Shown: piece by piece, positions 953-25,442 of the stretch
Numbering within the stretch: position 1 is the stretch's first letter
Layout of the letters: each line of letters opens with the position of its first letter
UHGV virus genome: UHGV-0027388
DNA from: a virus
Reading direction: 5' to 3' (one strand)
DNA length: 64,000 bases
Notes under the pieces: model-generated
Told to the model about the DNA's origin: nothing
Databases searched by the model: none
Seen by the model: only the letters and a program-made list of their open reading frames with translations
Made by a program: the position numbers and the translations under genes

Positions 953-1036
953 TTCTTTTATTCTCCTTCATTTTTTGTTTTTTGGGGCGGGGTTGCTTTA
1001 CGGTGCAGCCCCGCGAAAGTGTCCGCCTCGGTCGTT

Positions 1037-5581: not shown

Positions 5582-5656
5582 TGGCAGCGATGGCTGGATT
5601 CAAACCAGCGATGGAGGAGTCAAAGTCCCCTGCCTTAATCACTTGGCTACACCGCT
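5582..5656 (-). tRNA. tRNA-Gln (TTG)
   Basis: The reverse complement folds as a cloverleaf. Acceptor stem AGCGGTG pairs with CATCGCT. Anticodon loop CTTTGAC, T-loop TTTGAAT, encoded CCA. Closely resembles the Firmicute tRNA-Gln pattern. Confidence 0.75.
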
Positions 5657-5846
5657 AAATAGTATTAGCCGCCTCCCTGGATTCGCAGAAGCGGCTAATA
5701 CGTCTCACTAGAGCTGGACTTCTGGTGATCCACCCAGAAACGCTAATTATGCGCATGAATCAGCTGTCCAGCAAAGGCGGGTCATGGTCATTGCACCCAT
5801 GCGCAACCCTTGTACTTCGAGCTGCCCACTAACGCCCCGCATATGA

Positions 5847-5923
5847 TGGTGGACCTTGTAGGTCTCGAACCTACGACCGTGCGGTTATGAGCCGCGTGCT
5901 CTAACCAACTGAGCTAAAGGTCC
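5847..5923 (-). tRNA. tRNA with CAT anticodon (Met or lysidine-type Ile2; the GGACCTTTAGCTCAGTTGGTTAGAGC body favours Ile2)
   Basis: GGACCTTTAGCTCAGTTGGTTAGAGCACGCGGCTCATAACCGCACGGTCGTAGGTTCGAGACCTACAAGGTCCACCA. Confidence 0.8.
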
Positions 5924-6020
5924 GCATTAAACCGAGAGGGCGCATCTTGGTTATCTGGTTTTCTCCCAGACCATCTTTCAGGCGTGCGCCGGTGAGCATT
6001 TATTCCGCTCCTCTCCCGGT

Positions 6021-6094
6021 TGGAGCACCAAGCGGGAATCGAACCCGCGCAATCAGCTTGGAAGGCTGATGTTCTGCCATTAAACTACTGGTGC
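6021..6094 (-). tRNA. tRNA-Gly (TCC)
   Basis: GCACCAGTAGTTTAATGGCAGAACATCAGCCTTCCAAGCTGATTGCGCGGGTTCGATTCCCGCTTGGTGCTCCA. Anticodon loop CTTCCAA. Confidence 0.8.
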
Positions 6095-6201
6095 AAAATG
6101 CCGCCCGAATTGCACGGTCGCCGCCGGAGGTATGTTAAGCGGAGCATTCCATCTAGGCCGAATGCTTATATATGAAAGGAGATGGTTATGTACGCCATCC
6201 G

Positions 6202-6285
6202 TGGTGCCGCTAGTGGGAGTCGAACCCACACGCACAAAGCACAGGAACCTAAATCCTGCACGTCTGCCAATTCCGTCACAGCGGC
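6202..6285 (-). tRNA. tRNA-Leu (TAG), type II with a long variable arm
   Basis: Acceptor GCCGCTG pairs with TAGCGGC. 3-bp D stem. Anticodon loop TTTAGGT. T-arm GTGGGTTCGACTCCCAC. CCA encoded. Confidence 0.8.
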
Positions 6286-6303
6286 AAGCCTGAGTTGAGT
6301 GTA

Positions 6304-6393
6304 TGGCGGCGCAGGTGGGATTTGAACCCACGCACGGTTTCTCCGTCTAGCGGGTTTCAAATCCGCCCCCTTAAACCACTTGGGTACTACGCC
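6304..6393 (-). tRNA. tRNA-Ser (TGA), type II (31:39 A-C mismatch in the anticodon stem)
   Basis: Acceptor GGCGTAG pairs with CTGCGCC. Anticodon loop TTTGAAA. Variable-arm hairpin ACGG-agaaa-CCGT. T-loop TTCAAAT. CCA encoded. Confidence 0.7.
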
Positions 6394-6394
6394 G

Positions 6395-6470
6395 TGGTCG
6401 AAGTGGTGAGACTCGAACTCACGACCTCCTGAACCCAAATCAGGAGCGCTACCAACTGCGCTACACCTCG
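6395..6470 (-). tRNA. tRNA-Pro (TGG)
   Basis: CGAGGTGTAGCGCAGTTGGTAGCGCTCCTGATTTGGGTTCAGGAGGTCGTGAGTTCGAGTCTCACCACTTCGACCA. Only 1 nt separates it from tRNA-Ser. Confidence 0.8.
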
Positions 6471-6486
6471 ATCTATTATATTTCTT

Positions 6487-6563
6487 TGGCGCTATCGGCA
6501 AGGACTTGAACCTGCATCCTCCTGAGTACGAATCAGGCGCTCTGCCATTAGAGCTACGACAGC
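6487..6563 (-). tRNA. tRNA-Thr (CGT), with a bulged T in the T-stem
   Basis: Acceptor GCTGTCG pairs with CGATAGC. Anticodon loop TTCGTAC. T-arm GCAGG-TTCAAGT-CCTtGC carries one extra nucleotide. Confidence 0.7.
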
Positions 6564-6701
6564 ATATATAGCGCCGCCGGAATTGCACCGTGGCTTTCAG
6601 CGTTCGCCGGGGAACTTCCCCAACTGGCCGAAAGAGCCTCCCACTTAGGCGATGAAGGCTTATAAATACATGAAAGGAGAAAGGGCTATCGACCTGCCCT
6701 A

Positions 6702-6777
6702 TGGAGCTGGTGGACGGACTTGAACCGCCGACCATCGACTTACAAAGACGCCGCTCTACCAACTGAGCTACACCAGC
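6702..6777 (-). tRNA. tRNA-like gene, probably tRNA-Thr (TGT), with an imperfect anticodon stem (possible pseudo-tRNA)
   Basis: Acceptor, D arm (GCTCAGTTGGTAGAGC) and T arm (GGCGGTTCAAGTCCGTC) are canonical, with CCA encoded. The anticodon loop is TTTGTAA. Only 3 of 5 anticodon-stem pairs can form (GCGTC/GTCGA). Confidence 0.55.
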
Positions 6778-6854
6778 AGATCGACCGCCCCGAACCGAAA
6801 GAAACAGAAAAATTCGGAGCGGTCAAATAGGATATGTCCCCCATCCCTGATAAA

Positions 6855-6883
6855 ATTATAGCAACAGGTTTGCGTGGTAGTAA
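6855..6883 (-). promoter_or_regulatory. promoter of the tRNA operon (minus strand TTACTA-N17-TATAAT)
   Basis: The reverse complement of 6855-6883 reads TTACTAccacgcaaacctgttgcTATAAT, about 75 nt upstream of the first tRNA. Confidence 0.6.
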
Positions 6884-6999
6884 CCCCTAAAAAAATTTTC
6901 TTGAAAAGGGCTTGATAAGAACGCAGAGCCTGTTAAACTATAGTTGCGCTTGGACGATAGTCTCATGTTTGCCTTCCTCGCAAGTCTTTATTTCTAAAG

Positions 7000-7045
7000 A
7001 AGAAGCAGCACCCGGTGAAAATTCGGGTGCTGCTTCTTTATGCTT
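7000..7045. terminator. bidirectional rho-independent terminator (13-bp stem)
   Basis: gaagcagcacccg-gtgaaaatt-cgggtgctgcttc with T-rich tracts on both sides. Terminates minus-strand family gene B. Confidence 0.75.
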
Positions 7046-7070
7046 TCTAACCGCGTCGATTTCGACACAG

Positions 7071-7349
7071 TTACTTTTTGTATCGCTTCTGCATTTCCTC
7101 CACGGTGTCCACTGTCTCTTCCAGCTGGATGTCAGGAAGGTACTCTGTGTTTTCTCCCATTTTCACAACTTCATCCTGGATGAACTCGAACGCCCACGCA
7201 AAGTAAGTTCCCGCCACCAATGGGTCAATTTCTTGATCTTTGGGGGCATCCCGGAACAGCTCCGCCATCTTCTGAGCGGATTCTGCCGTGTGAATGATGT
7301 TCTCAAAGTGTTCGTTCTGATAGTCTCTCATGCTCTTACGGATAGTCAT
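7071..7349 (-). CDS. small acidic protein, family copy B (motif YFAWAFEFIQDE)
   Basis: ORF 7071..7355. The likely start is the ATG of MTIRKSM..., preceded by AGAAAGGA. Paralog of 5269-5544, with the same MTIRKSM N-terminus. Confidence 0.7.
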   Translation of the reverse strand: MTIRKSMRDYQNEHFENIIHTAESAQKMAELFRDAPKDQEIDPLVAGTYFAWAFEFIQDEVVKMGENTEYLPDIQLEETVDTVEEMQKRYKK

Positions 7350-7472
7350 ATTCAAAATCCTTTCTTGCGTCAGGCAAGAACTAGTGATATAATAAATTTA
7401 TCATTAGGCCTTGCCTTTTGGTGTGTATAAGGCTTCGTCCCGTGATTGCTAGTCCAGGGGGCGAAGTCTTAT

Positions 7473-7649
7473 TTACTTTTCGGTGGACTGTTCAACAAGG
7501 TCAATTCCCTTTCTGACAATATCGCTCTTGGAGAGATTCAGCTTTTCAGCGCACCGTTCAAGTTTCTTGCGGTATTCTTCGTCAAGCCGAACTCTGAGCA
7601 TCGTGTCTTTAGGGCTGTCGCTCTTTGGACGTCCCATGTTTTGCGACAT
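7473..7649 (-). CDS. ribbon-helix-helix protein (58 aa, MSQNMGRPKSDSPKDTMLRVRLDEEYRKKLERCAEKLNLSKSDIVRKGIDLVEQSTEK)
   Basis: Below the ORF-table cutoff. Minus-strand promoter TTGACT-N17-TATATT overlaps direct/palindromic repeats TTGTAGCTACAA. RBS AGAGGTGA. The conflicting + ORF 7446..7898 spans these promoters and is rejected. Confidence 0.55.
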   Translation of the reverse strand: MSQNMGRPKSDSPKDTMLRVRLDEEYRKKLERCAEKLNLSKSDIVRKGIDLVEQSTEK

Positions 7650-7832
7650 CTAATCACCTCTTTCTGTCGCTACAACAAATATATCATTGTAGCTACAACA
7701 AGTCAAGAGTTTTTTTATTTTTCCTTGTCTGTGGCGGAACCGCATGGTATAATGGATTTACCAGTTGCACCGCTTCTGGGGGATAACCGTAAGCTGTTGG
7801 TCGTCAGCCTTTACCAGCTTGCGGTTATTTTC

Positions 7833-8006
7833 TTACTTGCTGAGTTCTTCCTCAAGGACACGCCTGAACCACTCTGTGCGCCCCTCTCCACGTTCTGAGA
7901 GTTTTCGGTCGAGAGCGTCAGCCTTGTCCCTGTCTACGAGGAAAACTAATTGCTTCTTAGCTTTCCTCAACTCGCGGAAGTATTCAGCACGGCTTTTTTC
8001 AGCCAC
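7833..8006 (-). CDS. ribbon-helix-helix-like small protein (57 aa, GTG start; ...KQLVFLVDRDKADALDRKLSERGEGRTEWFRRVLEEELSK)
   Basis: RBS AAGGAGGTG 6 nt upstream of the GTG. Its own TTGACT-N17-TATATT promoter carries a repeated TGTTGCTAACAACAA motif. Confidence 0.45.
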   Translation of the reverse strand: MAEKSRAEYFRELRKAKKQLVFLVDRDKADALDRKLSERGEGRTEWFRRVLEEELSK

Positions 8007-8057
8007 CGGCTCACCTCCTTGTTGCTAACAACAATATACTATGTTGCTAACAACAAG

Positions 8058-8120
8058 TCAAGAAGTTTCTTTTCGTCGGCGGTCACAGTGGGGCTGCTTC
8101 ATGCTTTTACGAATAGTCAT
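8058..8120 (-). pseudogene. truncated 5' remnant of an acidic-family gene (MTIRKSMKQPHCD..., 20 codons then stop)
   Basis: DNA atgactattcgtaaaagcatgaa...ccactgtgac matches the start of copy A with an internal deletion. It runs directly into the promoter of the RHH gene at 7833-8006. Confidence 0.45.
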
Positions 8121-8363
8121 ACTTAAAACCTCATTTCTGGTATTTTGGGATTGGACTTCGGAATGAAGCCCCGCTCCCTTGAACTGCCTTTATTATAGTA
8201 CTTACTAAGTACAACCGCAATCGGCAGAATAAACAATGATTAAGTACAAGTATTGTGCATTATTGTACTTGCCAAGTGCTGACATTATGCGCTATAATAA
8301 GGACAATGGAAAAGGTATGCTTATATTAGTTTGCTACTTACAGAAACGAAAGGGCGGGATAGC

Positions 8364-8705
8364 ATGGCTGTAACTGAATCCAGGAAAAAAGCGAACGCTA
8401 AATGGGATGCGGCAAATCTTGATAGGATGTCGCTTGCACTCCACAAAGGAAAGAAAGACGCAATTAAAGCGGCGGCGGCGCTGGCCGGTGAAAGTATGAA
8501 CCAGTATATCGGTAATGCAATTGATATGCGCATGGCTGGGGTGGCAGGGAGTGAAGTTACTGCTTCTATTTTGACACCTGCTGCTCTGTGTGCGGCTCAG
8601 ACGGGCGCAAAGCTGGCAGGGGAGGAAGTACCCGCCTTTGTGGAAAGGGCTGTTAAAAACGAATCTAAGCGGGATGAAATGCAAAGAAAACTGCTTGGTA
8701 AATAA
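8364..8705 (+). CDS. ribbon-helix-helix-like DNA-binding protein (113 aa)
   Basis: Likely internal start of ORF 8331..8705. Paralogous to 30578-30775 (KANAKWDAANLD...GESMNQYIGNAI versus KAVAKYTKANYD...GESVNGFIGRAI). The upstream operator carries inverted AAGTACAA/TTGTACTT repeats. Confidence 0.55.
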   Translation: MAVTESRKKANAKWDAANLDRMSLALHKGKKDAIKAAAALAGESMNQYIGNAIDMRMAGVAGSEVTASILTPAALCAAQTGAKLAGEEVPAFVERAVKNESKRDEMQRKLLGK

Positions 8706-9081
8706 AAGGCCCGGAAAAGTGGTGCAAACATGGCAAAAACCAAAGCCCAGCAAGCTACACAAAAGATGAAAACGAGAGTCAACCTTGACGGGCTGGCTCT
8801 CGTTTCTTATTAAAGGCAAGATTGATTTTCTGTGATTATTTTTCGGAATCCGTCTTTATCTGCTTCATAGCATCCTGCATCTTAATCTTATACCAGTAAA
8901 CAGGAAGATTTGCGCAAATTTACACGGTAAACAGTAAGGGATTTACACGGTAAACAGGAGCAAGGGGTGAGAACAGGTATTTTCCCCTATTCCGCAACAC
9001 ATTTTTGTCAACCTGTCAACAGAACTGTCAACTTTCACCCGACTCTACAACTTTTTATTGTGGACGCGGTTGTAGCTAGAT

Positions 9082-9351
9082 TTATGGAATATATTTACAG
9101 AATTTCATGCGCCACGTTCTGGTTGTTATTTCCTCTCTGTGCTTGCGCTGCCATTCTTCTGAAACCTGCTTGAAAGTTATTATTTTTGGCTGAATTGCCT
9201 TGTTTAACTTCGTGTAAAGGCGTTCGGGATCGCGGTCATAAACATACCTCCGTTGACCGTTTCCGCCCAGATAAGAGCCTTGATAGCGACCGTCTTTTTG
9301 CAGTGTAAACATCGACGCGAAATCCAAAGTTTTCTCTTGTTCTTTGCCCAT
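9082..9351 (-). pseudogene. N-terminal fragment of a second tyrosine integrase (arm-binding domain only)
   Basis: MGKEQEKTLDFASMFTLQKDGRYQGSYLGGNGQRRYVYDRDPERLYTKLNKAIQPKIITFKQVSEEWQRKH... matches the integrase N-terminal DNA-binding domain pattern. GGAGGT RBS. No catalytic domain follows. Confidence 0.5.
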
Positions 9352-9846
9352 GATGTTACCTCCCCGTAACAAGCGTTTCTGTTTCTTACGGCGTCAGTTT
9401 ATCATGCGCAGTTTGAAAGTCAATGAACCATCCTGCCCAACAGGCCAGACTGTAAAACGGCGTAGAATGCGTTCTGAGCGGTTTTTATCTGCCGTTGATT
9501 AGTTTTGCACCTACGCACCTAAAAATCGCTTTACGGTCGTTCTGTGGCTTCTGATGGCATTTTGGAAGTGTTCCCTGTGTGTGCAGGTGCGTATATGCGT
9601 GTGTGAGCGCGTGTGATGCCCGGTGTGCCGTTTTCAGAGCTTCAACGGGAAATTACATTCCGCAAGTTCAAAACGCCTTCTTAGCCGCTCTGTGACTGTT
9701 AGAGGGCAACTGATTGATTTGCGCCGAGATTGTATTTTTTTCTTTCCTGATTTCGCAGAATTCCGTCCCACCCGCCGTGTACGCGCACGCGCATCAAGTC
9801 TCTGCATATCTTATAAATATATATTATATATATACTAGACTTGTAA

Positions 9847-9995
9847 GTCTTATTTTCTATTTAGACTCTCTATATATGCTAGTCTCTACTCCTAATCCTG
9901 TAGGTCTTATCTTCTATTTAAGCTCTCTATATATGCTAGTCTGTACTCCTAATCCTGATAGTCTTATTTTCTAACGTAAATCTGTACTATCTGTA
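9847..9995. repeat. about 58-bp tandem repeat, 2.5 copies (agtcttattttctatttagactctctatatatgctagtctctactcctaatcctgt)
   Basis: Direct reading. Copies at 9847-9902, 9903-9960 and 9961-9995. Degenerate TTCTACCGT-type motifs continue to about 10200. Confidence 0.8.
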
Positions 9996-10414
9996 GGTTT
10001 GTACTTCTACCGTACTAAACCTGGAAGTCTTTACTTCTAACTAAGTACTCAAAAAAATAAAAAACTGCATCAATAAACTTGCAAGTCAGTATTTCTACCG
10101 TTAATACGCTGATAGTTATAGCTTTTACTCTTACCGACTATGCTTATAACTTTCCTAAACTTAGAGTTCAAGCCGCTACACAGTATTGCCATTTACTACC
10201 ATAAATATTCCTTTGATTTTACAATTTTATGCGTCTACGGCAGATTTGTTACGGAGTTGACACTTTTTGTCAAGGTTGACAAATATTTTCCTACTCGGTA
10301 GTTAATTACTATTATTATAAAATCCGACGATTTTCGCCTCTTGGTGCATGATACGCCTTTGCCGTGCACCAAACAACACCGCAAATCAGTTTACCATCAT
10401 AAGGAGGAACGCAA

Positions 10415-10715
10415 ATGAAAGAGAAGCGAAATAAGTTAGGCCTGACACAAGAGCAGGTCGACAGGGTGTGATCGTGTGCTTGATGCAAAAGAGATCAACG
10501 CCGAAATAGCCCGCCTTGAATACGTCGAGAGCAGCTATCCGAATTACGCCAAGCTGGCCGACCTCTATATCATCCGCGATAAGATGGAGTCATGCGCAAG
10601 ATTGAGCAAATATAATGCAAATCCCCCAGCCGAAAAAGCTGGGGGATTTGCCGTAGCAAAAACGTATCAAAAGGCGAAATTCACGGTACTTAATTCAAAC
10701 AGAAACGAGCCTTAA
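10415..10715 (+). pseudogene. disrupted HTH-domain gene (18-codon XRE-like N-terminus MKEKRNKLGLTQEQVDRV, stop, then a C-terminal ORF in the +1 frame)
   Basis: AAGGAGGAAC RBS. The first frame stops at 10469-10471. ORF 10476..10715 continues in another frame. Confidence 0.35.
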
Positions 10716-10890
10716 TCGTCATCAAAACACACAAAAATGCGTTAGCGCACAATGGATTGCGTGTTCTGTCAGTCTATGATACAATAAAATACATATAAAA
10801 TATACGAATATTTATCACTATAAAACGAAGCAAACAAGCAAAAACAATCATAATCTGCAATCATTAAGTGTAAAAAATAAAATGCGAGAT

Positions 10891-11961
10891 TTATGGCGTA
10901 GCAGAATCGTAGCATCTCTCCAAAATGGAGCACAAATCGTCCCGTTTGGCTTTGTAGAGATGGGAGTAAACACGGAGTGTTACAGTCACATTTTCGTGGC
11001 CTAAACGCTCTGCTATGAGCAGTGGCTGCACCCCCTGGTCTATCAGCATCGACGCGTGAGAATGTCGGAGATCATGCACCCTGATGATCGGCACACCTGC
11101 CTTAACGCAGTTGCGCTTGCAGTGGTTGCGGAGCATAGACGCGCTTGTACCCTCGAATAGCCTACCGCCTGACATTGTGGCGATAAGCGGGGCTAATTCC
11201 TCCTGCAAAAAGTGTGGGATTGATACAACTCTGACGGAGCTTGCAGTTTTAGGCACTCCGATAATTTCTTCTCCGTTCAGCTTTATGTAGGTTTTGGTAA
11301 TGGATATTTTACCGTCGCTCACATCCTCTGGTGCAAGCGCCAGCAACTCGCCCTCACGCATACCCGTCCAAAACAATGTGTCGAAAGCAATCTTCATAAG
11401 CTCGTTTTGCTCACAAGAACGGAATTTGGCATACTCCTGCACGGTCAGAAATTTCATTTCTCGCTTTTTTTCATTTCTCTTTTCGGCGACTGCGTTTGTG
11501 CATGGATTTGACGGCAGTCCATATAACCGGACAGCAAAGTTAAAAATGCTCGATAACCTCGATTTCAACATAGCGGTCGTCGTTTGAGATAGTTTCCCTC
11601 CGGTTATGCGCGATTTCCGGTTTTGCAGATCGCTATACCACTTGCGTACAGCCAGTGGCGTGACGTCTTGCACTGCGGTTTTTCCAAACGCTGGGCGCAA
11701 ACTCTTTTCGACCGCGAATTCAATCGACGAGTATGTCGTCGGCTTCACCCTTGTTTTTGCGTCCTCTAGATATAGGTCAAGCAGCGACGACATGGACATA
11801 GATAGACTTCCATTCATCTTTTGCAAAAATTCACGCTCGTACTGCTGGGCTTCTCGTTTTGTTGGAAATCCCTCTTTTTTCTTTTGTTTTCGCGTCCCAT
11901 CAAATGTAGTATATCTACAGGTCACCTTCCAGCGCCCGTCCGGCATTTTCGATACGCTCAT
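10891..11961 (-). CDS. int: tyrosine site-specific integrase (phage integrase family)
   Basis: 356 aa. N-terminal arm-binding motif MPDGRWKV. C-terminal catalytic residues in HDLRHSHASMLIDQG...LGHENVTVTLRVYSHLY. Confidence 0.9.
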   Translation of the reverse strand: MSVSKMPDGRWKVTCRYTTFDGTRKQKKKEGFPTKREAQQYEREFLQKMNGSLSMSMSSLLDLYLEDAKTRVKPTTYSSIEFAVEKSLRPAFGKTAVQDVTPLAVRKWYSDLQNRKSRITGGKLSQTTTAMLKSRLSSIFNFAVRLYGLPSNPCTNAVAEKRNEKKREMKFLTVQEYAKFRSCEQNELMKIAFDTLFWTGMREGELLALAPEDVSDGKISITKTYIKLNGEEIIGVPKTASSVRVVSIPHFLQEELAPLIATMSGGRLFEGTSASMLRNHCKRNCVKAGVPIIRVHDLRHSHASMLIDQGVQPLLIAERLGHENVTVTLRVYSHLYKAKRDDLCSILERCYDSATP

Positions 11962-11971
11962 GTCCTACACC

Positions 11972-12391
11972 TCAAATATAGTCCTCAAAATATTGGAGCG
12001 TGCTATATTCGCAAATCAACTTATTGCGCGGAACATCAATCCGAGACTTTGCCTTTTTGTATGTCCTGATATATTGCTCCATTTTTTGCGCTACGAGATG
12101 TTCTTTCCCTCTCAAAGCGTCAAACTCGTTCTGCCTGATATGTGGCTGCACATCGGAAATATAGGAGTTCTTGCGGAGCAAAACGGCCTTTGTGAAATCA
12201 ACACCACACCCAGAATCTTGATCTGTCCATAACACATATTTGTGCTTGATGTGCGACCTCAAAGGAACAGCAAATAAATTCCCCTTAATTCGCACGCAAA
12301 GCATAATGTATGGTCTATCTGCTTTCTGCTCAATTTCCGGGCAATCAAGGTGATCTCGGAAGAATGTATCGGTAAGAAAGATAAAATGCAA
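11972..12391 (-). CDS. toxN: type III toxin-antitoxin toxin, ToxN/AbiQ-family endoribonuclease
   Basis: 139 aa. RPYIMLCVRIKGNLFAVPLRSH aligns with the RPY..G....G..Y..PLSS core of ToxN/AbiQ. The C-terminal CEYSTLQYFEDY resembles ToxN C.FS.LEE.Y. TTG start directly after an intrinsic terminator. Confidence 0.75.
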   Translation of the reverse strand: MHFIFLTDTFFRDHLDCPEIEQKADRPYIMLCVRIKGNLFAVPLRSHIKHKYVLWTDQDSGCGVDFTKAVLLRKNSYISDVQPHIRQNEFDALRGKEHLVAQKMEQYIRTYKKAKSRIDVPRNKLICEYSTLQYFEDYI

Positions 12392-12394
12392 AAG

Positions 12395-12430
12395 AAATAC
12401 CCCCTCATAAATGAGGGGGCGGTCTTCTGG
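12395..12430 (-). terminator. rho-independent terminator between antitoxin repeats and toxN (type III TA attenuator)
   Basis: Minus-strand CCCCCTCAT-tta-TGAGGGGG hairpin followed by TATTTCTTTT. Confidence 0.7.
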
Positions 12431-12432
12431 TT

Positions 12433-12535
12433 GAGCTTTCTTTATATTTAGTTCGACGCGCTCTACGTCGAAATCAACTCAGTGAGCTTTCTTTTTTCCG
12501 CGACAATCGCGCTCTACGATTGCATCTTCAAGGTT
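12433..12535 (-). ncRNA. toxI: ToxI-like antitoxin RNA: two about 51-nt tandem repeats
   Basis: Both repeats share GAGCTTTCTTT and CGCGCTCTACG. Each has a hairpin with the identical loop CGCTCTA on different, compensatory stems (ttcgacg/cgtcgaa versus caatcg/cgattg). Confidence 0.6.
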
Positions 12536-12550
12536 TCCCTTGCACCCTCA

Positions 12551-12578
12551 ATTATATTCAATTTTTCATCTAAGTCAA
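12551..12578 (-). promoter_or_regulatory. promoter of the toxI-toxN operon (TTGACT-N16-TATAAT on the minus strand)
   Basis: The reverse complement reads TTGACTtagatgaaaaattgaaTATAAT. Confidence 0.6.
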
Positions 12579-12611
12579 CACGCTACAAAAGATTATTTTA
12601 TACAGCGGCGC

Positions 12612-13211
12612 TCATAACTTATGCACCACCGATGTTGTATAACTCGCCTTACCGTCCATGACGGCCGCACGGCCTTTGCGCAGGCCGTCTCGGAAAGTCT
12701 CCACATCTGGCATGATGCGGTCTGTGTTGACCAGTAGGCCGTTCGCGCTGGCTGCCTCGTACAGGGTGTCAATCAGGGATGCGACCGCCAGACGCATTGT
12801 CATGGGGAGGTGATCTAACATCACAAATTCTTCAGACTGAGCGCCGATGTTGGAGCCGTGTTCGCCAAACACTAAAAAATCGAATTTTCGCACGGCGCGG
12901 TCCGATGCGACATTGCCTATATAGTGTAGCGCTGCACGGCGCAGCTCGTCGATGCTGCTATCCCGCGTGAGCGTGTACACATCCGGGTAAAGATACTCCA
13001 GCACGGAGGTCAGGGCGTCAACGCTGAATAGGTCAAACCACGAGATAAACTCATCGACGCGAGGAGCTGTCTGCCCGGACTCGTACTTGTCCCACGTCCT
13101 CAAATCTACACCGATCATCTCGGCCATTTTATACTTCGGCAGGCCGGTTCGCGCTCTCAATTTTTGTAGCACAAGAGCACATCCGCCTCGTAATTCTTCC
13201 CTCGTTCTCAT
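12612..13211 (-). CDS. XRE-family HTH protein with an uncharacterised C-terminal domain (199 aa)
   Basis: N-terminal HTH LQKLRARTGLPKYKMAEMIGVDLRTWDKYESGQ. No peptidase motif seen. Confidence 0.65.
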   Translation of the reverse strand: MRTREELRGGCALVLQKLRARTGLPKYKMAEMIGVDLRTWDKYESGQTAPRVDEFISWFDLFSVDALTSVLEYLYPDVYTLTRDSSIDELRRAALHYIGNVASDRAVRKFDFLVFGEHGSNIGAQSEEFVMLDHLPMTMRLAVASLIDTLYEAASANGLLVNTDRIMPDVETFRDGLRKGRAAVMDGKASYTTSVVHKL

Positions 13212-13743
13212 AACTTCACTCCTTTTCTGTGTAAAAATTGTGGTAAATTTTGCTTATGTTACCTCGTTTTATCCATTAAAAGGATAAACGATTTCCTGTA
13301 CAATAACGCTCAAAGGGGGGATAGGGGATGAATTATCGTATAAAAATAGCCGAGCACCCTGAATACGCAGACGCCCTTGTCGCAATGTTTTGAACGGACG
13401 ACATTGGCCGCATATCTGAGCAGGATGCCCGACTTTTCTGGCACTACGTTGTGCCGCAATTACAAGACGGTCATTTTAGGGGAGCAAAGAGGTCACTTGA
13501 TTTCCCACGAGTTCCCGCACTCTTGGCAGAGACAAATTTTCCGGTTCGTGATCTTTGTCTTTTCGCCTCCTTTGGACTTTTTCCAAACGAGATTGGACAG
13601 ACCAAGTGCGCATATCGAACATATGTACTAGTATTTAACTATCAGATGAAAGACGGAGGGGAAAGACATGAATGAAAACGAGCGAGAAGAGATTTTGACG
13701 ATGCTGGATACAATCTATGCCAACAAAGCGGCGAAGGAAAAAC

Positions 13744-14103
13744 TTATTGCATATCTTTTAGATCAGAGTACATTTCGCGGATCATGCGCTTCACCCGCTC
13801 TTGCTCGGTTGGAGGAAGCGTATCAATAAAAGCAGCAGTTTCTTCCGCCGCCTGACTATGACCGCCGCCCATTTGGGTGGCGGTTTTTTCGTCTCCAACA
13901 ATGGAGTCAATCGACACAGAAAAATACTCCGCAATCTTGTTCAGTGTCTTTGTGCTTAATCCGAACTTTCTTCCGCTTTTTAAATCGCTCATGATACCAC
14001 GGCTTATTCCGATGTCGGTACACATCCGGGAATCGGTGACACCCTTGCGCACACACAATGCGTGGATTGTTTCGTACAAATTGCCCATATGCAGACACCC
14101 CAT
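13744..14103 (-). CDS. CI-like XRE-family repressor (119 aa)
   Basis: HTH IHALCVRKGVTDSRMCTDIGISRGIMSDLKSGRK. Divergent from a Cro-like gene across a repeat-rich operator region. Confidence 0.7.
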   Translation of the reverse strand: MGCLHMGNLYETIHALCVRKGVTDSRMCTDIGISRGIMSDLKSGRKFGLSTKTLNKIAEYFSVSIDSIVGDEKTATQMGGGHSQAAEETAAFIDTLPPTEQERVKRMIREMYSDLKDMQ

Positions 14104-14270
14104 TTTGGCATTTACTCCAAATGTACTTAGTTGAGTAATATGTACTTGACTATGTACTCAAACAAGTATATAATAACCATTGTAATGACGCAAACAAGTA
14201 CAATATTTGTTATAATAATTTTAGTACACAAATGCGTACTTGTCAACGAAAAAAGTCAGGAGGTGATAGG
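14104..14270. promoter_or_regulatory. immunity operator region with multiple TGTAC/GTACT half-site repeats
   Basis: atgtacttag, atgtacttgac, atgtactcaaacaagta, caagtacaat, tagtacac, gcgtacttgtcaac. -10-like TATAAT and TTGTCA elements are present. Confidence 0.55.
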
Positions 14271-14528
14271 TTGGTAGCCCAGACGAAGTTTGGTTATGTG
14301 GTCAAGGCAAAGCTACTGGAAATTGGAAAAACACAACAGTGGCTGTATGCCGAGGTAAAAGCTCGCACTGGATTGTACCTTGATAGCGGGTATCTGCATA
14401 AAATCCTGACAAACCAGCGCGAGGCGGTTAATGTACGCAATGCAATTATCGACATCCTTGACATCAGCGAAGATGAAATCAGGGAAGATGAAATCAGGGA
14501 AGAGGATGAGAAAGCGGAGGTGAAATAA
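14271..14528 (+). CDS. Cro-like small HTH regulator (85 aa, TTG start)
   Basis: AGGAGGTG RBS 5 nt before a TTG. HTH KLLEIGKTQQWLYAEVKARTGL. Acidic C-terminus encoded by a 15-bp tandem duplication (EDEIREDEIRE). Confidence 0.55.
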   Translation: MVAQTKFGYVVKAKLLEIGKTQQWLYAEVKARTGLYLDSGYLHKILTNQREAVNVRNAIIDILDISEDEIREDEIREEDEKAEVK

Positions 14529-14714
14529 ATGACCAGACAGCTCATCAACGCCAAAGAGGCCGCCGCCATTCTCGGCATCGGCGAACAGTCAGCGCGGGAA
14601 GTCCTGCGCAAGATCAACGCCGAGATGAAGAAAGAGGGGCTGTTTACATTGGACAACCCCGTTAAGGTCCCCCGGAGAAGATTGCTACAGCGGTTCGGGC
14701 TGGAAAAGGAGTGA
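14529..14714 (+). CDS. small HTH DNA-binding protein (excisionase/AlpA-like, 61 aa)
   Basis: INAKEAAAILGIGEQSAREVLRK matches the Xis/MerR-type HTH pattern. Confidence 0.55.
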   Translation: MTRQLINAKEAAAILGIGEQSAREVLRKINAEMKKEGLFTLDNPVKVPRRRLLQRFGLEKE

Positions 14715-14983
14715 TGGCATGGACAACCTGATTACCCAGCACGGTCGCTGACGTCGCAAAACTGTACGGCGTAGCAGACACCAGAGCACTCATAAAGCAC
14801 GTTAAGTTTGTCGGGACCAGATGGAGCCGCAGGGTGTCTAAGGCTTCTCTAGCGCGGCAGATGAGTTCCTATTGACCATTCTCACATTAAAACGACAACG
14901 GAGGAAGGGAAAAATGAAAGAACGAGATATTGATACCGAAATCAAGGAAGTCTGGAAGCAGCTAAGCGACGAAAGAAAGAAAA

Positions 14984-15355
14984 TCAGTCTTTTGTATCTT
15001 CGCTCTCTTCTGCAAGAAACTCCTGAGCAAGCTGTCCGCGAAGATACCGCAGAACAAACTTCTTCCGTTCAGGGGACAATCTGAGCAGGATATAGTCAAT
15101 TTCTTCATCAACATTTAAATCTTTAGAGAATCCGTCGTTCTTCGGAGCGATGGATTCTTTTTTTACGTCATTGTCCAGAAAATACTCAACCGGAATATCA
15201 AGAGCATCTGCGATAGCTTTCAGCGTATTTCCGCGAGGCTTTCCTCCGTTTTGCCAGTTGGTAATATTTCCGCTGCTCATTCCTATCTTAGCCAAAAAAG
15301 CTGTGACAGAGATACCCTTGCACGCGCACGCATACTGCAATTTGCTATAAAACAT
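14984..15355 (-). CDS. XRE-family HTH repressor (123 aa)
   Basis: HTH LAKIGMSSGNITNWQNGGKPRGNTLKAIADAL. Confidence 0.7.
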   Translation of the reverse strand: MFYSKLQYACACKGISVTAFLAKIGMSSGNITNWQNGGKPRGNTLKAIADALDIPVEYFLDNDVKKESIAPKNDGFSKDLNVDEEIDYILLRLSPERKKFVLRYLRGQLAQEFLAEESEDTKD

Positions 15356-15550
15356 AATACTGCCTCCTCATTTTTGTGCAATTCGTAGAATTGCGTTAAA
15401 ATGCGTAATTTGCAGTTGCAATGCGCAGTTTTACGCAGTATAATGCAAATGCAAGGACGCAAAAACGCAATCTACTTTGTTTCCGCAAATTCATTGTAGC
15501 ACAAAAGCGCATTTTCGTCAATGCAAAAAATTGCGTGGAGGTGAGTTGTT
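15356..15550. promoter_or_regulatory. divergent promoter/operator region with TTGCGTAA/TTACGCA and GCAATTC-gta-GAATTGC palindromes
   Basis: tgcaattcgtagaattgcgttaaaatgcgtaatttgcagttgcaatgcgcagttttacgcagtataatgcaaatgcaaggacgcaaaaacgcaat. Confidence 0.6.
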
Positions 15551-15778
15551 TTGAGTTTCTGGGAAAACTTCGTTTTGCTGTGCAAAGAGAACGGAGAGAA
15601 GCCCACAGTAGTTGTTAACAAGTTGGGGTTAAGCAGTGGAAACATTGCACGTTGGAAAAACGGCGGATCAATTTCCCTTGAGAACGGGAAGAAAATTGCC
15701 GAACATTTCAATGTGCAGATGGAGCGACTAACGTCAGATGACGCAAAAGCGCCACCCACCACAAGGCACTTGGAATGA
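15551..15778 (+). CDS. XRE-family HTH regulator (75 aa)
   Basis: HTH NKLGLSSGNIARWKNGGSISLENGKKIAEHF. Paralogous to 14984-15355. Confidence 0.65.
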   Translation: MSFWENFVLLCKENGEKPTVVVNKLGLSSGNIARWKNGGSISLENGKKIAEHFNVQMERLTSDDAKAPPTTRHLE

Positions 15779-15825
15779 GCGCGGAAAGGAGGAATAAGAA
15801 ATGACACGAAGAGATACGCAGACCA

Positions 15826-16041
15826 TCAGCGGTTAATCTCTGGGTTGTCTGTGCGTCCGGTGAGATAGTCTAGGGAAACTTCAAAGTAATCCGCTAGAGA
15901 AAGCAATTTTTCGTATGCAGGGAATTTTCCGTACTCATATCTCTGGTACACGATGGGCGAAGCACCGATGGCTGTATAAACATCCCTTTGAGTCAGTCCA
16001 CGGGCGGTGCGAAGCTCGCGCAGACGTTCAGCGAAGGTCAT
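15826..16041 (-). CDS. XRE-family HTH repressor (71 aa)
   Basis: LRTARGLTQRDVYTAIGASPIVYQRYEYGKF. Confidence 0.7.
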   Translation of the reverse strand: MTFAERLRELRTARGLTQRDVYTAIGASPIVYQRYEYGKFPAYEKLLSLADYFEVSLDYLTGRTDNPEINR

Positions 16042-16150
16042 AATGGGACACCTCCAAATATTTTTACAAAAGGGGTTGTAACTACAAATGTGTAGTGCTA
16101 TAATACAGCTACACTACATTTTTGTAGTGAATCCAGAAAGAGAGGAGCAA
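16042..16150. promoter_or_regulatory. divergent operator region with ACTACA-aatg-TGTAGT and CACTACA-ttttt-TGTAGTG palindromes flanking TATAAT
   Basis: Direct reading. Confidence 0.6.
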
Positions 16151-16357
16151 GTGAATGTGGCATTAAGAGCGGCCCGCGAACAGTCCGGCAAGACACAAGC
16201 GCAGGTCGCTAAAGAAGTGGGAATTGCCGAAATTGCGTACCAAAGATACGAATACGGCACGACAGAACCACGAGTGCGGACGGCAATCCGCATCGCAGAC
16301 GCATTGGGAACAACGGTGGAAGCGTTGTTCAGGGAAGATTATACACGCTCAGAATGA
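16151..16357 (+). CDS. XRE-family HTH regulator (68 aa, GTG start)
   Basis: GAGAGGAGCAA RBS then GTG. AREQSGKTQAQVAKEVGIAEIAYQRYEYGTTEP is paralogous to 15826-16041 (shared YQRYEYG). Confidence 0.6.
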   Translation: MNVALRAAREQSGKTQAQVAKEVGIAEIAYQRYEYGTTEPRVRTAIRIADALGTTVEALFREDYTRSE

Positions 16358-16379
16358 GCGTGGCAAGGAGGAATAAGAA

Positions 16380-16739
16380 ATGACACGAAAAGATGCGCAG
16401 AAATCTCAAATTCTCCAACATCTAAAACGGCATGGAACTATCACGAGCATGGAAGCTATTACACTGTTTGGATGCACCCGCTTGAGCGGACGGATATTCG
16501 ACCTCCGACATGAAGGTTATCTTATCCGAAGCGACAAAACAGAGGGCAAAGCCCGTAATGGTAATGCGTGTCAGTTCACTACTTACGTTTACGAAGGGAG
16601 GATGACGGAGAATGGACATTTGGAGCCTGCTACTTGGAACAGTGATCGGCATCTGGTTCTGGGAGTTTGCGAAACAGCTGGCACGGGTGATTGCGTCGAT
16701 GATCGGAACACACCGGACACGAAAGCTGCGAGAGCGTAA
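16380..16739 (+). CDS. winged-helix DNA-binding protein (phage small regulatory protein family)
   Basis: QILQHLKRHGTITSMEAITLFGCTRLSGRIFDLRHEGYLI matches a common phage wHTH pattern. The ORF tail overlaps the next gene and may be shorter. Confidence 0.5.
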   Translation: MTRKDAQKSQILQHLKRHGTITSMEAITLFGCTRLSGRIFDLRHEGYLIRSDKTEGKARNGNACQFTTYVYEGRMTENGHLEPATWNSDRHLVLGVCETAGTGDCVDDRNTPDTKAARA

Positions 16740-16821
16740 GGAAGAAGCCAGAAAGGCTAAATCCGATAAGGTGAGCAGAAGAGAACTGTTTCTTCACAAT
16801 GAACGGGAGATTACCCGCTGA
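16612..16821 (+). CDS. small membrane protein (69 aa)
   Basis: GGGAGG RBS. N-terminal TM segment LLLGTVIGIWFWEF, basic C-terminus. Confidence 0.35.
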   Translation: MDIWSLLLGTVIGIWFWEFAKQLARVIASMIGTHRTRKLRERKEEARKAKSDKVSRRELFLHNEREITR

Positions 16822-16901
16822 TTGAAGAGCAAGGGCATTAGTCACAGGTGGAGGCATGGACGAAAAAATTGCCATGAAAGCGGCGGTAGTGGCCGCCTGG
16901 A

Positions 16902-17315
16902 ATGGCAGAAAGGAAGTTTGAAGGTATGGATCATGAGAAAATGACCACCAGCATTCTGGATATGTGCATGGGAGCCATCAAAGAGCGGGTGGACTACGAC
17001 GCCGCCCGGGTGGTGGAGAACATCCTTGACCCGAATACGGAGCCGAAGGCAAAGCGCAAGATTACGCTGACGATCGAATTTATCCCCAGCAGCGACCGCA
17101 GCCATATCACGGTGCATACGGGCAGTAAGGCAGCTCTGGCACCCACCGCGCCGGTGGAGACCAGCCTGGGCATGATGAGCGATGCCAACGGTGAGATGCA
17201 GTTGGTGGAGCTGCTGCCACAGGTGGCCGGTCAGATGGACTTTGATGGCGAGCAGACGCCAGAGCCGAAGGTTCTGAAACTGGCCGCTCTGGCAGAGCAA
17301 CGGAAAACGATGTGA
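16902..17315 (+). CDS. hypothetical phage protein (137 aa)
   Basis: ORF-table entry within the early gene series. Confidence 0.5.
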   Translation: MAERKFEGMDHEKMTTSILDMCMGAIKERVDYDAARVVENILDPNTEPKAKRKITLTIEFIPSSDRSHITVHTGSKAALAPTAPVETSLGMMSDANGEMQLVELLPQVAGQMDFDGEQTPEPKVLKLAALAEQRKTM

Positions 17316-18055
17316 TGGAGGGAACAATCATGTTGAAGGAAGCAATCGAGAAAATCGTGGAATTGTCTGGTCCTAAGACGATTACAGATCAGTACGGTCA
17401 GGTCTGGTCCGATCGTCCAATGAAGGTCGTGGAGCGCGAAAGACAGCGCCCGGATAAGCTGGCAGTGAGCAGCTTGGATTCCATTGCCCGTCTTGTCCGT
17501 AAAGAGGCGGTCGAGAATTTTGATGAAGGAGTCCCGATTTACGTTCATGTGACCGGTTACAAAACCGTGCGCGTGTTCACCGGTTATCTGGACGACTATT
17601 CCAGAGATGTGCTCTATGAGGCAACTGCCGATGTGCCGGATTTTCGAGGCGGCTATCGTGAGCGCGAGACGGCACTGATTGAGTTGCGTAGCTTGTTCCT
17701 GCCCGGTGACGGCGTTGAATATCTGCTGGATCTACTCAGCCGGATGAGCGATGAGAGCAAGGTTATCAGCGTCGACAACGGTGTGACACAGGGCGTGGAG
17801 GTTGCAAAGGGCATTTCGCTCAAGTCGACGCAGGCTATCCGCCCCAGAGTGGCGTTGCAGCCCTTCCGCACGTTTCTGGAGGTGACTCAACCCGCTAGTG
17901 AATTTCTACTCCGGGTGTCCGAAAATGGGAACATCGGCCTGTTTGAGGCGGACGGAGGTGTCTGGAAGCTGGAGGCCAAAAATAATATCGCGGCCTACCT
18001 CCGCGAGGCGCTGGCTGATGAGATCAAAAGCGAAAAGGTGGTGGTCATGGTATGA
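17312..18055 (+). CDS. hypothetical phage protein (247 aa)
   Basis: ORF-table entry. Its start overlaps the previous stop (ATGA). Confidence 0.55.
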   Translation: MMEGTIMLKEAIEKIVELSGPKTITDQYGQVWSDRPMKVVERERQRPDKLAVSSLDSIARLVRKEAVENFDEGVPIYVHVTGYKTVRVFTGYLDDYSRDVLYEATADVPDFRGGYRERETALIELRSLFLPGDGVEYLLDLLSRMSDESKVISVDNGVTQGVEVAKGISLKSTQAIRPRVALQPFRTFLEVTQPASEFLLRVSENGNIGLFEADGGVWKLEAKNNIAAYLREALADEIKSEKVVVMV

Positions 18056-18117
18056 TCGTCTATCCGGCCGGGCCGATCACCGATGTGGCGGCGCAGAGAT
18101 GAAGGGGGTAAGGTCAA

Positions 18118-18861
18118 GTGGCTGACTGCATTGACGCGATGGAGGCCACAGTAGCCGGACTCCACGCGGTTGAGCGCTTATGCACCGCGAATGCAGTCAG
18201 TAGGCAATATCCGGTCGGCTACAAGACGCGGCGCAAGGTTTTCAAAGACAGGGAAAGCTGGCTGGAAGGCCGTGAGAACGGAATCGGTGCCAGCGAAGCA
18301 AGCGCAATTCTAGGGTTCAGTCCGTGGCTGAGTTCCATCGAACTATGGAAGCGCAAGGCCGGTCTTGTCACTCCGAAAGAGATTGTTGGTAACGCTGCAA
18401 TCGACCGGGGGAAACGCATGGAGGGCGCACTCAGAAACCTGTTTGCCACCCAGCACCCGGAATACCGTGTAGATTACCGTGAGTTCGACATTCTCTATCA
18501 GGCTAACCGCCCGTGGCTGACCGCTACACTGGACGGAGAGTTGCACGACGAAAACGACCGCTTCGGCGTTCTTGAAATCAAGACTGCGCTATGCTCGAAG
18601 CGAACTGACTGGGAAAAATGGAAAGACCAGGTTCCAGACTACTACGCCGTGCAGTGCTTCCATCAGATGTTAGCCACAGGCGCTGAGTTCGTAAAACTCT
18701 ATGCGTGGCTGTGCAACATTGAGGGTGACGCTTCCTTGAGGACGTACACTTTCGAGCGCACAGATCACAAAGAGGATTTGGAATACCTGCTGGAACGCGA
18801 AACAGAGTTCTGGGGATATGTCGAAAAACGCATCATGCCGCCCATGATTATTACGTTCTGA
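18118..18861 (+). CDS. YqaJ-like viral recombinase exonuclease (lambda Exo-like)
   Basis: GIGASEASAILGFSPWLSSIELWKRKAG matches the YqaJ domain signature. Confidence 0.8.
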   Translation: MADCIDAMEATVAGLHAVERLCTANAVSRQYPVGYKTRRKVFKDRESWLEGRENGIGASEASAILGFSPWLSSIELWKRKAGLVTPKEIVGNAAIDRGKRMEGALRNLFATQHPEYRVDYREFDILYQANRPWLTATLDGELHDENDRFGVLEIKTALCSKRTDWEKWKDQVPDYYAVQCFHQMLATGAEFVKLYAWLCNIEGDASLRTYTFERTDHKEDLEYLLERETEFWGYVEKRIMPPMIITF

Positions 18862-18894
18862 ATAAATCGAGACATTATACAGGAAGGAGATAAC

Positions 18895-19770
18895 ATGGCA
18901 AACGAGATTGGGTTTGTCGTCGATCAGACGGCACTCACGAGCGCACAGGCCACTGTCATTCAGGCAAACTTTGACGAGATGAAGAAGTATCTCACAGAGA
19001 TGATGGAGCCTTATAAAACGCTCTCTATCAGCCCAGATGACATTCAGGCCGCAAAGGCCATTCAGGCCAGAATCGGCAAAGTCAAAGACCGTATTGAGGA
19101 ACAGCGCAAGACTGTCAAGAAAATGTGGGGAGTTCCGCTGGCTGAATTTGAGAAGCGCTGCAAGGAACTGACCGCAGAGTGCGATGAAGCTACCAGCAAT
19201 ATCAAAGGACAGCTTGCAGAGTATGAAGAACAGCGCAAGCAGGAAAAGGGGTATGAGCTTTCCAACTTTTTTGATGGATGTGTCGCGGAGTCACCGGAAG
19301 TCGAGGCATATCTCAAGTGGAGTGACATCTTTGATTCCAGATGGCTTAACGTTACCTACTCCATCGGAAAGGCAAAGATGGAAATCTCTAACGCAGTTGG
19401 AAAATGTGCGGAAGAACTGAGACAAATCCGTTCCCTCAAGAGCAGATATGAGACGGCACTCTTGGATGTTTACAAGAGCACACATAACCTGGCACTTGTC
19501 ATGCAAAAGCAGATCGAATATGCCAACCGGGATGCGGAACAGCGGCGCAAAGAGCTTGAAGAACAGGCCGCCGAGAAAGAGAAGGAAGCACACAGGCAGG
19601 AAACGGAAACCGCAGAGCAGGTTCAGGCGCAAGAGACAGCACCTGTCGAGCCAGAAAAACCCGCTGCGAAAATTTACCGCCTTTCTTTCAGAGTCACCGG
19701 AACCAGAGAACAGCTTATGGAACTCAGTTCCTACATGAAAAACGCTGGAATTTCCTACGAAAGAATCTGA
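18895..19770 (+). CDS. coiled-coil phage protein (possibly DUF1351-like, commonly adjacent to RecT)
   Basis: 291 aa with a charged coiled-coil C-terminus. The family name is from memory and is uncertain. Confidence 0.5.
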   Translation: MANEIGFVVDQTALTSAQATVIQANFDEMKKYLTEMMEPYKTLSISPDDIQAAKAIQARIGKVKDRIEEQRKTVKKMWGVPLAEFEKRCKELTAECDEATSNIKGQLAEYEEQRKQEKGYELSNFFDGCVAESPEVEAYLKWSDIFDSRWLNVTYSIGKAKMEISNAVGKCAEELRQIRSLKSRYETALLDVYKSTHNLALVMQKQIEYANRDAEQRRKELEEQAAEKEKEAHRQETETAEQVQAQETAPVEPEKPAAKIYRLSFRVTGTREQLMELSSYMKNAGISYERI

Positions 19771-19779
19771 CACACGCAA

Positions 19780-21349: not shown

Positions 21350-21380
21350 TCCTAAAAATTGATAAGGAGGAAATGCCAAA

Positions 21381-21689: not shown

Positions 21690-21722
21690 TTTGCCGCCAA
21701 CTAAAGGAGGAATAAAAACTAA

Positions 21723-23188: not shown

Positions 23189-23257
23189 TGTAACAAATAC
23201 GGTTTGGGCGGTGCCGCGTCGTCGCCCAAGCCGAAAAAGAAAGGTACGGGATGAGAA

Positions 23258-25429: not shown

Positions 25430-25442
25430 AGGCGGCGATTGA

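Follow-up and report, generated by a model that had tools for sequence, protein, structure and literature searches.

[quoted passage not shown] Toxins of the family span 70-259 aa, and its repeats average 50.9 nt in length (39-57 nt) and 2.2 in copy number (Blower et al., 2012; PMC3401426, Table 2), compared to a mean repeat of 44.8 nt (units of 40-48 nt) in CptIN and nearly identical units of about 36-38 nt (range 31-46 nt) in 2-5.6 copies for ToxI (PMC3401426). A later survey (Nadig et al., 2025; PMC12283969) gathered >700 TenpN sequences, of which Firmicutes account for over half and viruses for some. It described non-identical repeats missed by Tandem Repeats Finder (TRF), a conserved A-stretch, and manually predicted pseudoknots, and raised the question of whether both repeats function (PMC12283969). 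Neither Rfam nor 6A is mentioned in its text. The Rfam family RF02925, "6A RNA," is a candidate structured RNA of Weinberg et al. (2017), whose main text carries no discussion of 6A (PMC5737381), and is typed by Rfam as "Gene; sRNA." A literature text search for 6A motif or 6A RNA surfaced only m6A papers.

The window analyzed here is a stretch of 64,000 nucleotides of the virus genome UHGV-0027388. Its locus at 11972..12580 is very probably a type III TA module of the TenpIN family, an accessory cassette among the lysogeny genes of a siphovirus-like prophage whose host is a human-gut Clostridia bacterium, and is an ordinary addition to the already described family. The first-pass annotation had proposed a ToxIN/AbiQ-like type III TA system, of which the class and the layout were retained and the family was replaced by TenpIN. 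The analysis covered protein and RNA family membership, fold, operon anatomy, RNA-toxin co-occurrence, and both RNA helices by covariation.

The toxin and its relatives

A single strong match was obtained in NCBIfam, to the TenpIN family toxin equivalog NF047358 (E 6.3e-41, 139.9 bits compared to a curated cutoff of 90 bits, residues 6-138). The hidden Markov model search suggested earlier for a ToxN/AbiQ protein (PF13958) gave no such match by hmmscan against Pfam-A at E <= 1, where only three sub-threshold unrelated families appeared. PADLOC did not recognize the toxin as a defense gene, and in PHROGs it fell in phrog_8049, a family of unassigned function. Public data held 463 toxin homologues, the nearest having 67% identity besides a 99% identical cluster; the nearest relatives belonged to Oscillospiraceae, Allofournierella, and Bulleidia MAGs, and two homologues were named "protein AbiQ" by JGI. 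By tblastn, a B. thuringiensis plasmid gene annotated ToxN/AbiQ was reached at E 7e-4 and Yersinia and E. coli plasmid relatives at 28-35% identity, which places the window toxin at a distance from the experimentally tested proteobacterial TenpIN.

In a 32-sequence toxin alignment, 27 positions were invariant, including R26-P27-Y28, P43, R45, S46, H50, C62-G63, D65-F66, K68, R86, E89, and a C-terminal S-x-x-Q-Y-F-E pattern. The window open reading frame (ORF) is complete and has every one of these residues, and its TTG start aligns with the Met of the homologues. The protein reads RPYIMLCVRIKGNLFAVPLRSH ... CEYSTLQYFEDYI (in outline RPY…VPLRSH…CEYSTLQYFEDYI), an RPY / PL(R)S / C-terminal aromatic-acidic pattern that resembles ToxN/AbiQ; the signature quoted in the first-pass annotation is present in approximate form but not literally. 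At the position of the catalytic Lys in the ToxN "TSPK" motif, the TenpN family shows no conservation; position 49 is variable and the invariant His50 follows the PLRS motif, so that TenpN chemistry may differ.

AlphaFold2 applied to the same alignment (pLDDT 95.8, pTM 0.89) gave a predicted model with a ToxN-like (Kid/MazF-related) endoribonuclease fold. Sequence identity to the solved ToxN/AbiQ/CptN toxins was 11-15%, a range that, together with the lack of a PF13958 match, separates the window toxin from ToxIN/AbiQ systems (Pectobacterium ToxIN, B. thuringiensis 4ato, Lactococcus AbiQ 4glk, and E. coli ToxIN 7d8o). Eubacterium rectale CptIN (4rmo; Rao et al., 2015; PMC4627078) was the weakest of four structural matches at 15% identity, with no sequence-level family match. 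A single-sequence search of the PDB returned chance matches only and no TenpN structure, and a family-profile search reached ToxN 4ato at E 0.098, aligning RPY...VPL(T/R)S, again with no TenpN structure. The profile search also listed Tetrahymena mitoribosomal uL4 at E 1.6e-4, which is probably spurious. The protein is a TenpN with a ToxN fold and not a member of the ToxN/AbiQ or CptN families.

Operon anatomy and the antitoxin repeats

The promoter, two repeats of ~51 nt, terminator, and TTG toxin start described by the first-pass annotation on the minus strand were all recovered at the positions it had given them (Table 1). As in TenpIN, a promoter precedes two tandem repeats, and a terminator separates these from the toxin, promoter and terminator both being sequence predictions. 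The promoter has 11/12 consensus matches and was the sole promoter-like site in a scan of 11800..12800; a simple consensus scan found such a site <=70 nt upstream of unit 1 in 39/79 non-redundant related loci. The leader hairpin at the predicted transcript start, a putative functional element, has a GNRA-type loop and is followed directly on its 3' side by the first GA|AGA junction. The most closely related loci (L001-L004, L081, L083, and L092) have the hairpin too, with its stem altered (AAGG/CCUU, GGGG/CCCU).

Table 1. Coordinates of the predicted TenpIN cassette and of neighboring prophage features within the window.
Feature	Position	Strand	Details
tRNA cluster	5582..6777		Host side of prophage
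Prophage tyrosine integrase	10891..11961	(-)	phrog_1 E 3e-73; PF00589, PF14657, PF14659
tenpN toxin gene	11972..12391	(-)	139 aa, TTG start; predicted ToxN-fold endoribonuclease
Intrinsic terminator	12389..12420	(-)	9-bp G+C-rich hairpin 12420..12399 and U-run 12398..12389
TenpI antitoxin unit 2 (Rfam 6A RNA)	12426..12476	(-)	RF02925 56.7 bits; stem 1 ttcgacg/cgtcgaa; loop TAGAGCG; predicted pseudoknot GAGC 12463..12460 with GCUC 12436..12433
TenpI antitoxin unit 1 (Rfam 6A RNA)	12477..12527	(-)	RF02925 42.6 bits; stem 1 12523..12517 with 12509..12503, (g)caatcg/cgattg(t); loop TAGAGCG; predicted pseudoknot GAGC 12514..12511 with GCUC 12487..12484, A-rich loop 3 between
5' leader hairpin	12529..12542	(-)	CAAGG-GAAA-CCUUG; MFE fold; predicted transcript start
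Sigma-70-type promoter of tenpI-tenpN transcript	12578..12551	(-)	-35 TTGACT 12578..12573, 16-nt spacer, -10 TATAAT 12556..12551
199-aa protein, N-terminal HTH (repressor-like), directly upstream	12612..13211	(-)	HTH/repressor matches
HTH_26 repressor-like gene	13744..14103	(-)	Lysogeny module with 12612..13211 gene
Portal gene	34216..36009	(+)	In long plus-strand block
Tape-measure gene	47303..52039	(+)	In long plus-strand block

The terminator hairpin, GCCCCCUCA-UUUA-UGAGGGGGU, is directly followed by ATTTCTTTTG (also given as AUUUCUUUUG), and a hairpin with a T-run occupied the unit-toxin spacer of 67/79 related loci. Its 3' arm, GAGGGGG, is the only Shine-Dalgarno-like sequence and lies 8 nt before the TTG start codon, which itself falls within the U-run. 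This embedding of ribosome binding site (RBS) and start distinguishes the window locus from described TenpIN members, as does its place directly upstream of a prophage integrase; the terminator-embedded RBS is also present in the closest clade, where TTG starts recur. With this arrangement, terminated transcripts would lack the gene and read-through transcripts would carry a sequestered RBS, suggesting a possible regulatory effect.

The two units are adjacent, 51 nt each, and identical at 30/51 positions (59%). Both contain the blocks CGTAGAGCGCG and AAAGAAAGCTCA (CGUAGAGCGCG and AAAGAAAGCUCA in RNA form), which are the reverse complements of the CGCGCTCTACG and GAGCTTTCTTT recorded in the first-pass annotation. 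TRF reported no repeat on 12300..12700 due to the units being only 59% identical. Each unit matched RF02925 from end to end (model positions 1-52) above the gathering score of 41.2 bits, with E values of 1.4e-10 and 7e-7 for the two units in the local search, and shares with the Rfam family its hairpin, GUAGAGC loop, and AAAGAAAGCUCA tail. The repeat RNA is not new, both units being members of "6A RNA." The leader RNA folded at z = -3.8 compared to shuffled sequences, and this value together with the two Rfam E values places the locus far beyond chance.

Two tandem same-strand units of 51 nt upstream of the toxin lie within the 39-57 nt range of TenpIN and equal the family mean of 50.9 nt and 2.2 copies, which makes the locus a textbook TenpIN and not CptIN-like. 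The earlier suggestion of a system closer to the CptIN type does not agree with these figures, the CptIN mean being 44.8 nt (PMC3401426), and the window units also exceed the 40-48 nt of CptI. In contrast to ToxI, the units are not near-identical repeats of 31-46 nt. The non-identity of the repeats, the A-rich stretch, the predicted pseudoknot, and the occurrence in Firmicutes and in viruses or prophages are likewise reported for TenpIN (PMC12283969).

Co-occurrence and covariation of the TenpI units

A covariance model, R1, was built from the two window units (scoring 66.1 bits on unit 1 and 68.3 bits on unit 2) and used to search 116 loci encoding toxin relatives, 80 of them from genomes and 36 viral ones from IMG/VR, where it found 150 and 74 units, respectively. 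Units were present directly upstream on the toxin strand in 114/114 loci with upstream sequence, the toxin lying at a contig edge in the other two, and ended 30-70 nt before the toxin start. Approximately 100 loci had exactly two units, one had three, and a few had one detectable unit, and elsewhere in ~890 kb R1 matched only at E >= 0.13. The RNA is thus tied one-to-one to the toxin, which identifies the 6A motif as the TenpI antitoxin of Clostridia-type TenpIN. Weaker, sub-threshold RF02925 matches reached Leptotrichia and Yersinia TenpIN loci, and the RNA plan was kept with weak scores in more distant plasmid TenpIN loci of C. estertheticum, Leptotrichia, Klebsiella, and Yersinia pseudotuberculosis p153kb, whose TenpIN belongs to the original set of Blower et al. 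(2012; PMC3401426).

Hairpins with an identical loop (CGCTCTA, reverse complement TAGAGCG) on different complementary stems were seen in both window units, as the first-pass annotation had noted, and its proposal of a structured RNA was supported by compensatory changes in two helices over 128 distinct units. Stem 1 (7 bp) was paired in 97.9% of cases with double changes at 7/7 pairs, and a second helix of 4 bp between loop GAGC and downstream GCUC was paired in 99.2% with compensatory changes at 4/4 pairs, including the variants GAAC:GUUC, GGGC:GCCC, GAGU:ACUC, and AAGC:GCUU. Overall, 98.4% of cells were paired compared to 27-48% in controls with the 3' partners slid by 1-3 columns. As the alignment was fitted to stem 1 and not to the second helix, the stem 1 figure leans on the model and the pseudoknot test is independent. 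Both helices were kept in distal and toxin-proximal units alike. On this comparative evidence, each unit is predicted to be an H-type pseudoknot whose two stems have 7 bp (stem 1) and 4 bp (stem 2) and whose loops 1, 2, and 3 are UA, G, and the A-rich "6A" run of ~15 nt, respectively, with single-stranded tails 5' WGAU and 3' …CAnnGAGA; this agrees with the pseudoknots predicted for TenpIN repeats. Rfam models 6A as an sRNA with the hairpin only, whereas the loop GAGC and tail GCUC of the window units covary as a pseudoknot.

At 34/59 parsed loci, the two units had different loop and tail 4-mers, and each loop fitted its own tail (469/472 pairs in cis compared to 438/472 in trans). Loop-tail pairing between units was considered and rejected, with perfect cis pairing at 56/59 loci compared to perfect trans pairing at 30/59. 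A GA|WGA motif was kept at the leader|unit1, unit1|unit2, and unit2|spacer boundaries of related loci, the window junctions being UUGA|AGAU, GAGU|UGAU, and CAGA|AGAC. Its presence before the first and after the last unit would be expected if the toxin cuts every boundary and so frees RNAs of one unit each, as ToxN does with ToxI.

Across related loci, the distal unit, typically 41-48 nt long, has a stem and a loop 3 shorter than those of the 51-52 nt proximal unit. One speculative and rather unlikely proposal is that the two units are specialized, non-redundant RNAs that evolution has kept apart and that form an asymmetric closed 2:2 complex with two TenpN. Such a hetero-pair would explain the exactly two non-identical units at nearly every locus and the systematic junction and tail difference (…GAGU|UGAU… compared to …GAGA|AGA…), and is in line with the predicted pseudoknot in both units and the frequent difference of loop-tail pairs within one locus. 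The 2:2 stoichiometry of CptIN cannot be assumed for the window locus.

Prophage setting, proposed mechanism, and alternative explanations

The cassette lies between the integrase and the repressor-like genes, the two lysogeny-module genes matching phrog_2328 and phrog_8 (PF13560 and PF13443). The prophage position next to an integrase claimed in the first-pass annotation holds: tenpN and the integrase share a strand, 10 nt separate the tenpN stop from the integrase ATG, and the scan predicted no terminator or promoter between the two genes. Read-through of the tenpI-tenpN terminator could possibly couple toxin to integrase expression. A same-strand integrase just downstream of tenpN was found in 3/116 related loci (L002, L004, and L116), with unrelated integrases. 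A direct-repeat search for att sites over 8000..64000 gave no convincing attL/attR pair in the window, and the right prophage end may lie beyond it. An identical toxin protein was present on 63 contigs from many gut metagenomes, one Hadza contig was 100% identical to window positions 5972..18391, and in other metagenomes the integrase-TA-repressor block occupied the same insertion site with 98-100% conservation. No toxin relative was detected by tblastn among 50,697 deposited phage genomes.

In the most likely mechanism, given the established knowledge of type III systems including the P. luminescens TenpIN, excess TenpI pseudoknots would hold TenpN inactive. One promoter would yield a short, abundant transcript with two 51-nt TenpI units that mostly ends at the intrinsic terminator, and occasional read-through would give the tenpN mRNA. 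Burial of the only Shine-Dalgarno-like sequence in the terminator stem is proposed to keep the toxin in large deficit to the antitoxin RNA. Each unit would fold into an H-type pseudoknot with the A-rich "6A" loop 3 along stem 1, and TenpN, as a ToxN-fold endoribonuclease, may cut the precursor at the GA|WGA junctions flanking every unit and stay on the processed pseudoknots as an inactive closed ribonucleoprotein. If the RNA supply collapsed, for example when an infecting phage shuts off host transcription or the prophage is lost, the labile RNA would decay and freed TenpN could cleave cellular or phage RNA, resulting in abortive infection, superinfection exclusion, or prophage stabilization. 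The nuclease mechanism, cleavage site, and stoichiometry assumed here are extrapolated from ToxIN and CptIN. For the window locus, toxicity, RNA neutralization, and precursor processing would follow from analogy to described systems, as would the activity as a nuclease, the site of processing, the formation of a complex, and the biological role.

Several alternatives bear on this assignment. The fold common to ToxN, AbiQ, and CptN, the weak motif-level likeness by which RPY and PL(T/R)S align with ToxN 4ato (E 0.098), and the AbiQ names given to two homologues by JGI and ToxN/AbiQ to the B. thuringiensis plasmid gene would suit a ToxIN/AbiQ- or CptIN-family system, which is nevertheless extremely improbable: the TenpIN equivalog was the only NCBIfam match, Pfam gave none for ToxN/AbiQ at E <= 1, identity to the solved toxins was 11-15%, repeat length and copy number fit TenpIN and not ToxI (38 nt) or CptI (45 nt), and the RNA is Rfam 6A, its plan recurring ahead of the TenpIN that Blower et al. 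described on Yersinia p153kb. It is likewise very unlikely that the 6A repeats act as an independent small RNA, or as a leader or attenuator that in cis controls only the downstream gene, in place of a toxin-binding antitoxin. Some 6A copies reportedly lie away from toxin genes, Rfam files the family as an sRNA gene, and the terminator-embedded RBS does give the leader a cis-regulatory component. Set against this are the repeats in 114/114 loci with upstream sequence, without exception on the strand of the toxin and directly before a terminator, the junction motifs at all boundaries including that after the last unit, as expected for unit processing, and a layout that defines type III TA systems and works in the P. 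luminescens TenpIN (PMC3401426).

Decay of the locus into a non-functional remnant, carried as passive prophage cargo, is also highly doubtful; units of only 59% identity and a TTG start with a sequestered RBS might be read in this way, but non-identical units are the family norm (PMC12283969), TTG starts are shared by other members of the closest clade, the ORF is complete with 27/27 invariant family residues, both helices are kept in both units via compensatory differences, and the identical protein occurs on 63 contigs. Somewhat unlikely, yet deserving of more weight, is a TenpIN system that mainly stabilizes the prophage by addiction, or is coupled to integrase expression, and is not primarily an abortive-infection defense. 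The closeness of tenpN to the same-strand integrase with no predicted terminator or promoter between them, the recurrence of this arrangement with unrelated integrases, and the conservation of the integrase-TA-repressor block at one insertion site all favor it, and TA-mediated prophage stabilization is known for other TA types (PMC12283969). However, the downstream integrase in 3/116 loci only is not a family trait, and the single tested TenpIN confers phage resistance (PMC3401426). Prophage stabilization and defense are compatible and not mutually exclusive roles.

TenpIN already has a curated model at NCBI, one for its RNA at Rfam, and two published surveys. The 6A = TenpI equivalence, the pseudoknot covariation in the Clostridia-type clade, and the apparent structural selection on both units are, as read from sequence comparison, what is new here. 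The locus is useful as a clean example that links TenpN toxins one-to-one with an orphan Rfam motif, "6A RNA," and the covariation lends comparative support to an H-type pseudoknot in TenpI, an RNA without a solved structure. Structural selection on both non-identical repeats bears on the question raised by the 2025 survey (Nadig et al., 2025; PMC12283969). Finally, the analysis documents a prophage, widespread in the human gut, that carries a type III TA cassette in its integrase-repressor region, which bears on prophage-encoded defense and prophage stability in gut Clostridia.

Antitoxin unit architecture and its detection

The TenpI antitoxin repeats differed by position within the array. 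In most clades (L006-L010, L016-L041, and other related loci), the distal unit was systematically shorter (41-48 nt) than the toxin-proximal unit (51-52 nt), with both the stem and loop 3 reduced. The pseudoknot pair, formed by the loop and tail 4-mers of one unit, was also often unlike that of the proximal unit, such as GAAC:GUUC compared to GAGC:GCUC within a single locus. The distal and proximal units of the window locus were both 51 nt. Unit counts of one among the related loci are partly detection limits, because the covariance model built from the two window units misses further diverged distal units in some loci. A unit with a GGAU loop and AUCC tail was missed by the model in L109 (3632..3891), and the array in L014 (3765..3820) was rearranged or duplicated with a 126-nt spacer.

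The TenpN family profile matched the Tetrahymena mitoribosomal uL4 chain 6z1p_Ae (E 1.6e-4 over 43 residues) and scored it better than ToxN 4ato. The match covered TenpN residues 26-68 (window 12316..12188) with the motif F-x-VPLR-x-x-I-x-H-x-YVLW, and the similarity is probably a chance motif resemblance.

Further structured RNAs and repeats in the window

Rfam and repeat searches identified additional features in the prophage and its host flank. The type II hammerhead ribozyme and RAGATH-5 matches shared one strand of the flank, with approximately 300 nt between them, and the tRNA cluster separated them from the prophage. The gut-2 RNA match was located in the packaging region of the prophage, flanked by the portal gene (34216..36009) on one side and the following ORF (start 36204) on the other. 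The early-region duplication covered an RBS and the start of two adjacent genes, pointing to small paralogous genes.

Additional features of the window
Feature	Coordinates	Strand	Evidence
Type II hammerhead ribozyme	603..667	-	Rfam gathering-level match, 53.6 bits
RAGATH-5 RNA	976..1026	-	Rfam gathering-level match, 57.9 bits
96-aa ORF	9082..9372	-	Resembles N-terminal fragment of a second integrase; near the ~57-nt repeats
Degenerate tandem repeats, unit ~57 nt, five copies	9835..10097		Repeat search
Duplicated 50-nt segment	15773..15822 and 16352..16401		92% identity
gut-2 RNA	36182..36229	+	Rfam match, 42.1 bits (gathering score 39.8)

The integrase neighborhood

The ~57-nt tandem repeats lay in an AT-rich stretch past the 3' end of the tyrosine integrase gene. 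Their copies shared a 25-nt core of 72-100% identity and the region was kept at 88-93% in the related locus L117. It may represent an old att/arm-site area or the remnant of an earlier element.

In the window, tenpN and the integrase were separated by 10 nt on the same strand (11961..11972) with no terminator predicted between them. An integrase was also found 40-170 nt after tenpN on the same strand in three other loci (L002, L004, and L116). These integrases were only 21-24% identical to the window integrase. The recurrent adjacency suggests that mobile elements have repeatedly captured the cassette at their int-proximal end, or that the two genes are co-transcribed.
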